Virus record (IMG/VR): IMGVR_UViG_2695420613_000010
Length of the DNA stretch: 5,608 nt
Source: a virus
Lineage: Duplodnaviria > Heunggongvirae > Uroviricota > Caudoviricetes
Reading direction: 5' to 3' (one strand)
Position 1 is the first letter of the stretch; each line of letters starts with the position of its first letter. A program made the position numbers and the translations under genes. Of the stretch, positions 2,047 to 4,296 are shown in pieces. Under the pieces are notes generated by a model. The model made no database searches. It had not been told where the DNA came from and worked only from the letters and a program-made list of their open reading frames with translations.

Positions 2047-2075
2047 AGAAAAAACAAAACCCGCCGAAGCGGGTT
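2047..2075 (-). terminator. Rho-independent terminator at the 3' end of the hok transcript
   Basis: Minus strand reads AACCCGC-TTCG-GCGGGTT followed by TTGTTTTTTCT: a 7-bp GC-rich stem with a UUCG tetraloop and a U-rich tail, about 70 nt after the hok stop. Confidence 0.7.
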
Positions 2076-2143
2076 AAGTGCGGGTGCGTTGAGGATGCCT
2101 GACACATCAGCGGTGGCGAGGGATTTCTCCCCCGCCTGGTCTC

Positions 2144-2299
2144 TTACTCCTCAGGTTCGTAAGCTGTGAAGACAGCGACCTCCGTCTGGCCGGTTCGGAT
2201 TCGTACCTCGCAGAGGTCTTTCCTCGTTACCAGTGCCGTCACTATGACGGTTAAACAGATGACGATCAGGGCGATTAACATCGCCTTTTGCTGCTTCAT
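2144..2299 (-). CDS. hokD: Hok-family type I toxin (host-killing membrane peptide), HokD/RelF-like
   Basis: 51-aa product MKQQKAMLIALIVICLTVIVTALVTRKDLCEVRIRTGQTEVAVFTAYEPEE, which from memory matches HokD/RelF. Single N-terminal TM helix plus conserved C-terminal Cys, typical of Hok/Gef. AAGGAG lies 7 nt upstream of ATG 2299. The track ORF 2144-2356 is an in-frame upstream extension. Confidence 0.9.
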   Translation of the reverse strand: MKQQKAMLIALIVICLTVIVTALVTRKDLCEVRIRTGQTEVAVFTAYEPEE

Positions 2300-2542
2300 A
2301 ACCTGCTTCTCCTTGCCTTTCGGCGCGTAAGAGGCTAACCTACGTTTGTGAAGCATAGATTGGGCCTCAGATTAATGTTAAGCGTCTTGCAGGACGCGTA
2401 ATGTTAACTGGGGCTTTTCTCTGTCTGCCTTACGGTGGCATGCCCGAGGCAGACAGCCTCAAGCACCCGCAGCAATTCTACTTAACTCTCGCTTTACAGC
2501 AAACCGTTTTGCCCGATATGGGAATTCCCATACGGAATGAAT
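2300..2542 (-). promoter_or_regulatory. hok leader / regulatory region with direct repeats and palindromes
   Basis: Contains 9-bp direct repeats TAATGTTAA (2373-2381 and 2399-2407) flanking the inverted repeat GCGTC-TTGCAG-GACGC (2382-2397), a perfect 10-bp inverted repeat CTGTCTGCCT/AGGCAGACAG (2421-2430 / 2447-2456), and a perfect 16-bp palindrome TATGGGAATTCCCATA (2517-2532). No mok-like overlapping ORF and no clear Sok promoter/terminator could be identified by eye. Confidence 0.4.
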
Positions 2543-2647
2543 TCAGTTCCCCAGGCGCTCCATCAAAAACACAACCAGGCAGTAAACACCCACAACAGCA
2601 ATAACAGCCAGAGCGCCTTCCATTACCAGTGAAATATCATCCGACAT
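2543..2647 (-). CDS. Hypothetical 34-aa single-TM small membrane protein
   Basis: ATG at 2647 preceded by AAGGGAGGG at about 4 nt. Translation MSDDISLVMEGALAVIAVVGVYCLVVFLMERLGN ends at TGA 2545-2543 and has a hydrophobic core consistent with one TM helix. Below the ORF-track cutoff. Confidence 0.45.
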   Translation of the reverse strand: MSDDISLVMEGALAVIAVVGVYCLVVFLMERLGN

Positions 2648-2682
2648 ATTCCCTCCCTTGGTGTGAATCCCGGCGAACGTTT

Positions 2683-2760
2683 TTACCCCCACCGACAAAT
2701 AACATATACTAGAAAAGCAATAGCTATAGCAACGCCTGCAAATGCATCTGGCCGGCTCAT
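2683..2760 (-). CDS. Hypothetical 25-aa hydrophobic peptide, translationally coupled to the 187-aa ORF (ATGA overlap)
   Basis: ATG 2760-2758 overlaps the TGA stop (2759-2757) of the 187-aa ORF; GGGGGAG lies 5-6 nt upstream. Translation MSRPDAFAGVAIAIAFLVYVICRWG ends at TAA 2685-2683. Very short, so this is a weak call. Confidence 0.3.
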   Translation of the reverse strand: MSRPDAFAGVAIAIAFLVYVICRWG

Positions 2761-3320
2761 TGGTTCTCCCCCTGTGTCGCTTCTACTGCGATCTGACTGG
2801 CGTATTCGTTAATGGTAACGATAAGTTCTTGCTCGGCCTCATCCAGACAACTACCGATACCTCGCCTGTCCACTTCAGAAGCATCGAAATCTGCACGAAG
2901 CCTGGCGACCTTCAGGATTGCGGACAACACCTCATCAGGGATTGCCGGAGAGTTGGTTGACGTTTCCGAGATTATCCGAAAATTATTGGTTGACGAACCC
3001 TTATTTTCCCGAAAGTTTCCAGCCTGAAGCATGGCGGCGCGGTGACACCAGATAATCCAGCCAAGCGCCATATCCCATGCCATGTATTCTCTATCGCCAT
3101 TTTTTGCTCTGCGGCGATCTACAGATTCCCCGAAACGCTTCTCCATAAATAATTCATAGGCTGCCCGTTCATCCGATACTGATGCCAGTGATGCCAGTGC
3201 AATTTTTAATGCGGTAAGCATGTTGTTTTGATCTTCATCGAGTCCGAACGGTATTTCATCCCGTGATGACTCAATTCCGGTAATCGTGTTCTGTAGCCAT
3301 TCTTTGGTTAATTCAGTCAT
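2757..3320 (-). CDS. Hypothetical 187-aa protein of unknown function (cargo/moron candidate)
   Basis: Long ORF MTELTKEWLQNTITGIESS...ATQGENQ with ATG at 3320; no motif recognised. It follows a 126-bp AT-rich intergenic region and a GC-rich hairpin just before the start codon, and looks less GC-rich than the flanking conserved genes. Contains a tandem 9-bp repeat TGATGCCAG x2 (3180-3197) encoding ALASLAS. Weak Shine-Dalgarno. Confidence 0.7.
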   Translation of the reverse strand: MTELTKEWLQNTITGIESSRDEIPFGLDEDQNNMLTALKIALASLASVSDERAAYELFMEKRFGESVDRRRAKNGDREYMAWDMALGWIIWCHRAAMLQAGNFRENKGSSTNNFRIISETSTNSPAIPDEVLSAILKVARLRADFDASEVDRRGIGSCLDEAEQELIVTINEYASQIAVEATQGENQ

Positions 3321-3446
3321 TTTTCACTACCGCCCTTTCGGGCGGTCTCCTGATGTTCTGAGGGTGCAGGAATCCCTCCGGTTAAGGATTTAATAAAAAT
3401 CATTTCTGATTTAAATTTTCAGTGTTTAGTTGTTGGTTTATAGCCT
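3321..3446 (-). promoter_or_regulatory. AT-rich intergenic region with candidate promoter and a 5' stem-loop over the RBS of the 187-aa ORF
   Basis: Minus strand contains AT-rich ACTAAACACTGAAAATTTAAATCAGAAATGATTTTTATTAAAT with several imperfect -35/-10-like hexamers. A 7-bp GC stem with GAAA loop (3329-3346, ACCGCCC-GAAA-GGGCGGT on the mRNA) ends 9 nt before the ATG. A second short inverted repeat GAGGG...CCCTC lies at about 3360-3378. No T-tract follows the hairpin, so it is not a canonical terminator. Confidence 0.3.
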
Positions 3447-3758
3447 TTATGCTTCGGCCTTATTTCTCAGCCATACACAAACAGGACCATCTTCGGTGTC
3501 ATGTATCGAACCGATAAACCATCCCTCACCTTCTGGTCGCTCAGGTTCCCATGCTGAAATATCAGGGCCATCTGCGTCCAGATTAAAATCATCTTCATCC
3601 ATACTACGGATAGCCCACTGAAGATTATTTTTCTCCATCCAGGCGTTAAACTCTTCCGTTGAAATATATTCCCGACCATCACAGAATTTTTCATATTCAG
3701 GATGCGTCCAGCAGCCATATTCATTACGTTCCACTGGCATTTCTTTAATTACGCTCAT
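3447..3758 (-). CDS. Hypothetical 103-aa strongly acidic prophage protein
   Basis: ATG 3758 overlaps the TGA stop of the upstream 62-aa gene (ATGA); AAGGGGGG lies upstream. By manual count the product MSVIKEMPVERNEYGCW... has about 25 D/E against about 9 K/R. Confidence 0.75.
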   Translation of the reverse strand: MSVIKEMPVERNEYGCWTHPEYEKFCDGREYISTEEFNAWMEKNNLQWAIRSMDEDDFNLDADGPDISAWEPERPEGEGWFIGSIHDTEDGPVCVWLRNKAEA

Positions 3759-3943
3759 TTACCCCCCTTATTTAATTTTCTACGACACTTTTTACAATCA
3801 TCTGGACTTTCGAATGTATCCGGCTCACGCTCATTGCCAAAATACATCCACCCACCGCAAATACTTGTTATTTCACCTTCAGCAAAATAATGATGTTTTT
3901 TCGCCATAAGTGGCCTTGCCCAGCCCGGATTCGTTTTACTCAC
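3755..3943 (-). CDS. Hypothetical 62-aa basic protein
   Basis: GTG start at 3943 overlaps the TGA stop of the 118-aa gene (GTGA) and is preceded by AAAGGAGG at 6 nt. Product MSKTNPGWARPLMAKKHHYF...CKKCRRKLNKGGK is lysine/arginine-rich at the C-terminus with 3 Cys. Confidence 0.65.
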   Translation of the reverse strand: MSKTNPGWARPLMAKKHHYFAEGEITSICGGWMYFGNEREPDTFESPDDCKKCRRKLNKGGK

Positions 3944-4296
3944 TTGTTGCCTCCTTTGCGAAGCTCTGCGACTAACTCGTCACATATGTGCGTCAAAGAG
4001 CAAAGTTTGATTGCTGGATGTTCGCGCACCATCTCCACACCCTGCGCCCGCAATTCTGCCAGAAAAGCGTAGGGGTCAGTTTTTTCACTGTGGTACATGG
4101 CATCATAGATAATCATTGCAGCGACACCTGCCTGTCCTGCATCTGTGACGGATATATGCTCAAGGGCTACGGCCATTGCGTGTTTCAACCTCTCATTTTC
4201 CACCTCAAGCACCACACGATTAGCCTCCAGCTCTTCTATGCGTTTTTTTGCTGCTCCCAGCTCAACACGCAGCTCCTGATAGTTAATCTCGCTCAT
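3940..4296 (-). CDS. Hypothetical 118-aa prophage protein with N-terminal coiled-coil-like segment
   Basis: ATG 4296 overlaps the TGA stop of the 74-aa gene (ATGA); GGGAGGAAGGAGA lies immediately upstream. The N-terminal ELRVELGAAKKRIEELEANRVVLEVENERLK is heptad-like. Confidence 0.75.
   Translation of the reverse strand: MSEINYQELRVELGAAKKRIEELEANRVVLEVENERLKHAMAVALEHISVTDAGQAGVAAMIIYDAMYHSEKTDPYAFLAELRAQGVEMVREHPAIKLCSLTHICDELVAELRKGGNK

Follow-up and report, generated by a model that had tools for sequence, protein, structure and literature searches.

A mosaic nin-region gene of an Escherichia coli O157:H7 prophage behind a portable leader with a candidate split ribosome-binding site

We describe the gene for a 187-amino-acid (aa) protein and the leader in front of it, found in a 5,608-nucleotide (nt) stretch of phage DNA (IMG/VR record IMGVR_UViG_2695420613_000010; "the window" in the following) that is 100% identical to an Escherichia coli O157:H7 prophage and is the nin region of this Rac/lambdoid prophage. 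Our favored reading, to which we give a probability of about 0.55, is that the open reading frame (ORF) is a genuine, ordinary accessory gene of the nin region with a modular helical product and that it stands behind a portable leader with a split ribosome-binding site (RBS).

In this proposal, four independently recombining modules (A, B, a linker, and C) would assemble a soluble, acidic, helical protein whose gene would be read from the early-right polycistronic transcript (pR) upon induction. The leader comprises, in this order, a stop-rich AT palindrome, UCCUU, a weak hairpin, the Shine-Dalgarno (SD) sequence AGGAG(G), a hairpin of -14 kcal/mol with a GNRA loop, a spacer of 5-8 nt, and the AUG. 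Folding of the stable hairpin would shorten the SD-AUG distance from 25-26 nt to about 6-10 nt and thereby form a split RBS. The hairpin would then be required for initiation rather than blocking it, while pairing of the upstream UCCU with the AGGA of the SD may damp initiation.

A stable hairpin lies between the Shine-Dalgarno sequence and the start codon

The gap upstream of the 187-aa ORF spans 126 nt (3321-3446) and coincides with the GC minimum of the window (0.33 at 3351-3450), while the remaining gaps are short or part of the leader of the hok/sok locus. An earlier note on this DNA, made from the letters alone, had rightly singled it out as sizeable and AT-rich. The same note had described a 7-bp GC stem with a GNRA loop ending 9 nt before the ATG; the stem is confirmed, with its end 8 nt from the start codon. 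All genes of the window are on the minus strand, and the parts of the leader are the following:

3321-3328, minus strand: A-rich spacer AGUGAAAA of 8 nt from the hairpin to the AUG (5-8 nt across cassette variants)
3329-3346, minus strand: GC hairpin ACCGCCC-GAAA-GGGCGGU, 7 bp with a GNRA loop, between SD and AUG
3347-3351, minus strand: SD sequence AGGAG (AGGAGG in most variants), directly 5' of the GC hairpin
3360-3378, minus strand: weak second hairpin GAGGG-9 nt-CCCUC, conserved, without compensatory changes
3382-3390, minus strand: anti-SD-like element AAUCCUUAA, invariant, resembling the 3' end of 16S rRNA, part of the RNAalifold consensus
3406-3422, minus strand: AT-rich imperfect palindrome CTGAAAATTTAAATCAG, the 5' edge of the cassette

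Folded alone, the GC hairpin has a predicted free energy of -14.1 kcal/mol. It is present in both the minimum free energy fold and the centroid fold, and six of its pairs form with a probability of 1.0, with the closing A-U pair at 0.72-0.96 depending on the context. Perfect stems of at least 7 bp with at least six GC pairs also occur in 15% of dinucleotide shuffles of the window, so the hairpin alone is not beyond chance; what makes it non-random is that ca. 2,600 E. coli genomes conserve it next to unrelated genes. Within aligned variants, 96% of the alignment cells of the stem are paired (with 13 U-G wobbles, 7 broken pairs, and 0 compensatory changes), and the changes are mostly C-to-U in the 5' arm, which retain U-G pairs in the sense RNA. 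The sequence after the stem reads AGUGAAAAAUG.

Because the hairpin sits between the SD and the AUG, its folding shortens the distance between them. The linear spacing is 26 nt from GGAG (25 nt in variants with GGAGG), while the folded spacing is 8-10 nt in the window and 6-9 nt in the other variants; the former is non-functional, and the folded 6-10 nt are optimal. The spacer from stem to start measures 5-8 nt in every variant, regardless of the gene that follows. Among the SD-like motifs of the leader, the strongest and only invariant one lies outside the stem, and a weaker GGCGGU is found within its 3' arm. The block UCAGGAG is unchanged in 26 aligned distinct variants (one further contig, L024, has GGAU). 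Farther upstream, the UCCU at 3385-3388 within AAUCCUUAA is predicted by the RNAalifold consensus to pair with the AGGA of the SD. From these data we infer both the split-RBS function of the hairpin and the masking of the SD by the upstream UCCU. According to the folding models, the leader may thus both enable initiation through the hairpin and damp it through the UCCU clamp, and it probably sets the translation level of the genes behind it.

The leader is a portable cassette of E. coli prophages

The leader is a cassette of ca. 105 nt that occurs in about half of all complete E. coli genomes. The 73 nt at the 3' side of the gap (3322-3394) are matched in 2,613 of 5,426 genomes, usually ahead of a gene for a 60-aa DUF7167 protein. 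Across 211 loci, the parts follow each other in a fixed order, i.e., CTGAATAATTAAATTCAG or CTGAAAATTTAAATCAG, an AT-rich segment, AAUCCUUAACC, and GGAGGGAUUYCUGCACCCUC, followed by AGAACAUCAGGAG(G/A), CCGCCCGAAAGGGCGG, UARUGAAA(AA), and AUG. At least nine unrelated coding sequences are found upstream and at least five different proteins downstream, beginning with MTELTKEW.. (the 187-aa ORF), MAELTKWLQ.., M(T/A)ELTKEQLIEE.. (in many lengths), MRKFKIII.. (DUF7167), or MKHYLEK.. (DUF4014). The cassette is located in nin regions and also in the pL-side ea region of phage mEp460_4F5 and Shiga toxin (Stx) phages, usually as a single copy per prophage. Its portability is therefore directly visible, as are the stability and geometry of its hairpin.

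The commoner palindrome variant CTGAATAATTAAATTCAG has a stop codon in each of the three frames and encloses the end of the upstream gene (e.g., at about 2240-2260 of contig L019 and 2500-2520 of L086). This palindrome may be a universal stop at a recombination joint. In contigs L082, L083, and L088, the upstream part has been lost by recombination, with CAGGAGG, hairpin, spacer, and start codon kept. Most homologs of the 187-aa ORF have no hairpin at all and start 2-4 nt past the stop of the preceding gene.

In a search of 185,579 species representatives, matches to the exact SD-hairpin were confined to Escherichia and Shigella, apart from one probably contaminated contig of a metagenome-assembled genome. 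The latter (L215, JAIHTM010000290.1, 3,030 bp) is labeled 'Collinsella sp.', and contamination or mis-binning is the most likely explanation. A distant blastn search against phage records returned only E. coli phages and one record labeled Actinobacillus. The covariance models of Rfam 15 gave nothing in 3321-3446 at E<=1. As a separate observation, phage Rac-SA53 (L003, about 2207-2972 and 3001-3175) carries an IS1 element directly 3' of the cassette hairpin in place of the gene usually served.

The 187-aa protein is a mosaic of shuffled phage modules

The ORF is real, as the earlier note had assumed from the ORF list, and is annotated in RefSeq at the same coordinates. Its exact protein is encoded on more than 1,000 contigs with the frame intact and has no functional name anywhere; the 1.2 kb surrounding it are complete in 344 of the 5,426 complete E. 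coli genomes. The gene and the modules of its product are arranged as follows (an asterisk in a protein sequence stands for the stop):

2757-3320, minus strand: 187-aa ORF with ATG start, RefSeq WP_000137954.1 (hypothetical protein), acidic, predicted all-helical mosaic
3180-3320, minus strand: module A (residues 1-47), PHROG 3323/5117, tblastn identity of 56-62%, alignment
3021-3179, minus strand: module B (residues 48-100), PHROG 660, alignment, with a near-invariant W..RAAMLQ at its end
2949-3020, minus strand: low-complexity linker GNFRENKGSSTNNFR..TSTNS (residues 101-124), alignment, predicted local distance difference test (pLDDT) about 30
2757-2948, minus strand: module C (residues 125-181) with tail ..TQGENQ* and stop, PHROG 14306, DNA alignment

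All PHROGs matched by the protein are phage families of unknown function: PHROG 14306 on residues 93-181 (E 1.3e-34), PHROG 660 on 48-98 (E 1.2e-17), PHROG 60 across 1-187 (E 2.4e-07), and PHROG 3323 and 5117 on 1-47. Module A recurs at the N-terminus of N15 gp45 and of DUF550/EaA proteins from P22-like phages. Module B is found independently in many protein architectures. Matches of the modules in phage records carry the names 'EaA', 'Ea22', or 'DUF550' and come from Stx, P22-like, N15, and Klebsiella phages.

Among 5.8 billion proteins, we found 4,326 relatives, the majority of which are named 'DUF551 domain-containing protein'. In the alignment, they have modules A, B, and the linker in common, in a subset also module C, followed by a C-terminal DUF551 domain. 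The 187-aa protein stops before this block but shares 72-97% identity with carriers of PF04448 over residues 1-134 or 1-181. HMMER, run exhaustively against 1.84 billion cluster representatives, yielded 1,049 clusters at 50% identity in which modules B and C appear at every possible position of proteins of 69-463 aa. In 50 sampled relatives, the modules are accompanied by no Pfam domains other than DUF551 (15), Ead_Ea22 (4), dATP-dGTP_PPHyd (1), and Lar (1). Close relatives on single contigs illustrate the exchange. The same A and B are fused directly to DUF551 in L018, whereas in L077 module C and the ..QG..Q* ending follow a different N-terminal half, and L081 has the architecture A'-X-C-DUF551.

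The identity of the gene and the mosaic structure of its product are evident from these comparisons. Given the shared modules and the homology of its tail DNA (..TQGENQ*) to the ..PQEVRQ* tail of DUF551 genes in the DNA alignment, the protein is, as judged by sequence comparison, a DUF551-less recombinant of the pool of lambdoid and P22-like phage proteins named EaA, DUF551, or Ea22. Its linker is a shared joint between modules and a likely site of recombination. Such mosaicism has a documented mechanism, since Rad52-like phage recombinases swap segments of ca. 100 bp (PMC3945230).

Searches for a function of the protein

The earlier note had recognized no motif in the protein, and our searches agree with it. 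Pfam hmmscan returned no family at E<=0.1 and thus neither PF04448 nor PF13935, NCBIfam and PADLOC gave no match, and a profile search of all PDB sequences found nothing at E<=10. Foldseek on the predicted structure, a check that the note had suggested, returned nothing at E<=0.001 against BFVD and PDB; the only probable matches were to short proteins related in sequence, one from an Erwinia phage and the other N15 gp45. Alignment of the family to lambda Ea22 with hhalign reached a probability of 0.3% (E 0.18), BLASTP gave no alignment with the neighboring Ead_Ea22-like gene at 3940-4296, and a search of the literature turned up nothing relevant on what EaA does. The relatives include no nin-region protein of established function and all belong to families of unknown function. 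Nor did PADLOC, Pfam, and NCBIfam reveal a toxin or defense signature or a catalytic or membrane motif in the protein, which has an isoelectric point (pI) of 4.6 and a grand average of hydropathy (GRAVY) of -0.43. AlphaFold models built with 18 and 62 sequences (pLDDT 50 and 53) consist of low-confidence helices and a disordered linker.

Nothing points to a toxin, an enzyme, or a DNA binder. By analogy with what has been proposed for Ea22 (PMC10834534) and with the phenotypes of YfdS (PMC4776307), the protein is most likely soluble and fast-evolving and would serve as a dispensable modulator that works by contacting other proteins, not as an enzyme or a toxin.

Alternative readings of leader and gene

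The earlier note had taken the hairpin for a lock on a weak SD that keeps a toxic or conditionally expressed effector under tight control. In such a scenario, the GGCGGU in the 3' arm, 8 nt from the AUG, serves as the SD, and the gene is silent unless the stem is opened. Pairing of GGGCGGU with the anti-SD is worth -6.6 kcal/mol at an ideal linear spacing and would be locked in a stem of -14 kcal/mol, and net repression is possible because the upstream UCCU is predicted to mask the AGGAG(G) as well. However, the invariant AGGAG(G) directly 5' of the stem binds the anti-SD more strongly (-7.4 to -10.3 kcal/mol) and is retained in the minimal junction variants, while most homologs are free of the hairpin and closely packed behind the preceding gene. 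The same cassette precedes DUF7167, DUF4014, and other unrelated small genes, so it is not tailored to a toxin and says nothing specific about toxicity of the 187-aa ORF, whose acidic, soluble, and helical EaA/DUF551-type mosaic product has no PADLOC, toxin, or Pfam match. We consider occlusion unlikely. What survives of the earlier proposal is that a structured and conserved leader could restrain translation; the probable main SD is not in the stem, and the toxic effector finds no support.

The gap could also act at the level of transcription. One version, which had likewise been put forward as independent expression in the earlier note, holds that an own and possibly regulated promoter resides in the AT-rich segment, with the conserved imperfect palindrome at its 5' edge as an operator, and produces a separate transcript for the ORF and the downstream peptides. 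We scanned the gap and the equivalent regions of contigs L086 and L019 for sigma-70 -35 and -10 hexamers at 16-18 nt spacing and found no site in any of them; the three cassette variants also have no intrinsic terminator. The palindrome occurs only once in 19 kb of prophage including the immunity region, and in its common form it also supplies a stop in every frame and extends over the 3' end of the gene upstream. An own promoter thus appears very improbable, and the gene would rather be transcribed from pR.

In the other version, the cassette is a transcriptional or RNA-processing punctuation mark, e.g., a Rho-dependent terminator or pause site or an RNase cleavage or stability element, to which the RBS is incidental. 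It is the sole long untranslated stretch in an otherwise close-packed operon, is typically present once per prophage, and is located between the replication genes and Q, where phage lambda has its tR2-tR4 terminators. Moreover, the ratio of C to G is 2.1 over 78 nt of the gap (the third highest value in the window, with a median of 0.81), and a stable hairpin follows. Yet this bias is weak, with C accounting for 15 of the 78 nt in a stretch that is rich in A and T instead, and in the commoner type of cassette the C/G ratio is only 1.2. No terminator-like site exists in the three variants, with no U-tract behind either hairpin. The same cassette is also found in mEp460_4F5 and Stx phages, there in the ea region on the pL side, and truncated junction variants retain just SD, hairpin, and start codon. 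We regard this reading as improbable as well.

Finally, the ORF might be a decaying remnant of a DUF551-type gene that has lost its C-terminal domain, with leader and coupling as relics of mosaicism. The protein does lack the namesake domain of its family, pseudogenes are found nearby in this class of prophage, and the ratio of nonsynonymous to synonymous substitution rates (dN/dS) is about 1.3-1.6 against the closest relatives, a value based on small counts. Against more diverged relatives, however, it falls to 0.3-0.8 (0.3-0.5 at greater divergence), and the frame is intact on the more than 1,000 contigs. Module C and the QG..Q* ending also occur with different N-terminal halves (in protein P0092 and contig L077), so that the form without DUF551 is maintained and exchanged as one unit. 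Decay of the gene seems highly unlikely to us.

Several observations weigh against our own proposal of an ordinary accessory gene behind a split RBS. Neither RNAalifold nor pair counts detected covariation for either hairpin, and the shuffle controls were not exceeded; the hairpin structure therefore rests on thermodynamics, conservation, and geometry. The partition function of the full leader has the SD mostly paired with the upstream UCCU, with an unpaired probability of about 0.05-0.12 compared to 0.7-0.98 without the upstream part, so the leader would repress overall. All variants are recent E. coli/Shigella phage sequences, and the conservation of the cassette could partly reflect recent common ancestry and a role as recombination joint; its usual presence as a single copy would fit a position-dependent signal for transcription no less than an RBS. 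On the side of the protein, the dN/dS values suggest weak constraint, no functional homolog establishes a role, and the structural model is poor.

A more far-reaching variant of the split-RBS proposal deserves mention as a tentative idea that we find rather doubtful. The cassette could be an undescribed cis-regulatory RNA module, i.e., a hairpin-bridged split SD that is clamped by UCCUU and switched by a phage or host factor or by co-transcriptional folding, to gate the genes recombined behind it. Jointly with this variant, and at the same low confidence, the switch would also gate the coupled membrane-peptide ORFs upstream of hok that are described below.

Neighboring genes and small membrane peptides

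The genes of the window are ordered as P, DUF1627, four small hypotheticals, the 187-aa ORF, a 34-aa hypothetical, hokD, a hypothetical, DUF968, RusA, and the antiterminator Q, with two tiny membrane-peptide ORFs (25 and 34 aa) between the 187-aa ORF and hok/sok. The direct neighbors of the gene and its leader are:

3447-3758, minus strand: 103-aa gene 5' of the gap, PHROG 1372, hypothetical, one of at least nine different genes preceding the cassette
2683-2760, minus strand: 25-aa hydrophobic ORF MSRPDAFAGVAIAIAFLVYVICRWG, ATGA overlap with the stop of the 187-aa ORF
2543-2647, minus strand: 34-aa hydrophobic ORF MSDDISLVMEGALAVIAVVGVYCLVVFLMERLGN, strong SD AAGGGAGGGAAUAUG, WP_001278460.1

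The coupling of the 187-aa ORF to a 25-aa hydrophobic peptide, also noticed earlier, is present and conserved as an ATGA overlap, which is kept whether the upstream gene ends in ..GENQ*, ..GAHQ*, or ..QEVRQ*. The SD of the small ORF (GGGGGAG at 2766-2772; GGAGG in others) lies inside the tail of the 187-aa gene. The 25-aa ORF is open in 13 of 13 distinct variants, including one with an in-frame 6-nt indel, and is likely coding, as judged from this pattern. Some variants have non-conservative changes in its hydrophobic stretch (A to D, L to P), and dN/dS is roughly 0.7 by hand count in a DNA alignment of four variants. Other family members are ATGA-coupled to unrelated genes, e.g., for 191-aa and ~94-aa proteins, so that the overlap represents ordinary phage gene packing. 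We had considered that the 187-aa protein and the 25-aa peptide form a specific functional pair and rejected this idea, since relatives are coupled elsewhere and the peptide goes together with the module next to hok instead. Contig L081 (about 3900-3995) offers another example of a DUF551-family gene coupled to a tiny membrane-peptide ORF: a 302-aa gene with the tail ..PEPPEQDGE* overlaps an unrelated hydrophobic ORF of 29 aa, MMPPVKVVIITLVMIVIARIMSGEVWWIW, that comes after it.

None of the 13 variants interrupts the 34-aa ORF either; most of its changes are conservative or synonymous, and it is better conserved than the 25-aa ORF. Together with Hok, the two form a series of three consecutive small membrane peptides. 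A near-perfect palindrome of 23 nt, CCGATATGGGAATTCCCATACGG at 2523-2545, overlaps the 34-aa ORF at its stop codon and stands just ahead of the hok promoter region; no U-tract accompanies it, and it is perfect in relatives L088 and L090. The hok/sok locus itself is complete, with a sok match in Rfam at 2294-2468 (minus strand, 114.9 bits), the HokD coding sequence at 2144-2299 (minus strand, Pfam HOK_GEF 3e-23), and the hok terminator hairpin AACCCGC-UUCG-GCGGGUU at 2058-2075. At 2054-2135 (minus strand), across the terminator and 3' end of the hok transcript, Rfam gives a weak isrK-like match (27 bits compared to a gathering threshold of 50, E 0.007) that probably recognizes the terminator alone, and a weak rsmX match (E<=1) also falls within 2054-2140.

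On the opposite strand, a promoter-like site (TTTACC-17-TATACT, 2682-2710, plus strand) lies inside the 25-aa ORF and faces its start codon and SD in a layout reminiscent of type I toxin/antisense pairs. Four aligned variants conserve both hexamers of the site, but these overlap coding and stop sequence, and the site may be a chance occurrence since 5 promoter-like sites were found with 2.6 +/- 1.7 expected. Upstream of the 103-aa gene, a 62-aa ORF (3755-3943, minus strand, PHROG 2358; 50 aa in the RefSeq version) may form a small zinc ribbon, as its C..C...C..C pattern (CGGW..DDCKKCRRK) hints.

Discussion

With these results, the 187-aa protein can be counted among the many shuffled early accessory proteins that lambdoid prophages carry and does not appear to be a hidden toxin or defense effector. 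The leader is the more interesting part, being a portable and probably split-RBS cassette that is absent from Rfam and present in many prophages of O157 and other E. coli. If this were confirmed, temperate phages would move ready-made structured ribosome-binding sites besides genes and protein modules. One hairpin and one anti-SD element would then provide a handle on the dosing of nin and ea accessory genes when prophages of enterohemorrhagic E. coli (EHEC) are induced.

Among known proteins, the closest counterparts are the DUF551/EaA-type carriers of PF04448 such as YfdS of the E. coli CPS-53 prophage (P0005-P0120 in our set), which share modules A, B, linker, and C at 50-99% identity. Their genes have the ..Q(E/G)..Q* tail DNA and an ATGA-coupled downstream ORF in common with the gene studied here and occupy the same niches, i.e., the nin region or the pL-side ea region. 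Unlike these carriers, the 187-aa protein is devoid of the DUF551 domain itself. For YfdS, only phenotypes have been reported, i.e., sensitivity of the mutant to H2O2 and a role in multicopy suppression of hda-185 (PMC4776307).

The lambda Ea22 family (PF13935) resembles the protein in design, both combining a short N-terminal part and long helices with a flexible joint and exchangeable C-terminal modules, and is similarly encoded in early, non-essential regions. The Ea22 variant V2 carries DUF551 (PMC10834534). Conversely, modules of the 187-aa ORF are fused to Ead_Ea22 in 4 of the 50 sampled relatives, and some phage records label its relatives 'Ea22' or 'EaA'. However, the protein has no PF13935 match and an hhalign probability of 0.3% with lambda Ea22, and the pro-lysogenic role of Ea22 is not transferable to it.

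For the leader, the likeness to the lambda terminators tR2-tR4 is positional only, as an untranslated element between the replication genes and Q, and the cassette has no hairpin-plus-U-tract. Its geometry is instead that of the split RBS of phage T4, where a hairpin cuts the SD-AUG distance from 22 to 5 nt for gene 38 and from 27 to 11 nt for gene 25, and where destabilizing the hairpin lowers translation (reviewed in PMC3014915). The cassette has an SD-AUG distance of 25-26 nt next to 27 and 22 nt in genes 25 and 38, a stable hairpin wholly between SD and AUG, a folded distance of 6-10 nt next to 11 and 5 nt, and conservation of the hairpin among related phages. A likeness to the T4 sites in sequence was not noticed, though no search was aimed at one. 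To our knowledge, this arrangement has so far been documented experimentally only for these two T4 genes. The cassette, known here from its sequence, differs from them in being a mobile element of temperate E. coli phages that serves several unrelated genes, and in its additional upstream anti-SD-like element, which is predicted to mask the SD.

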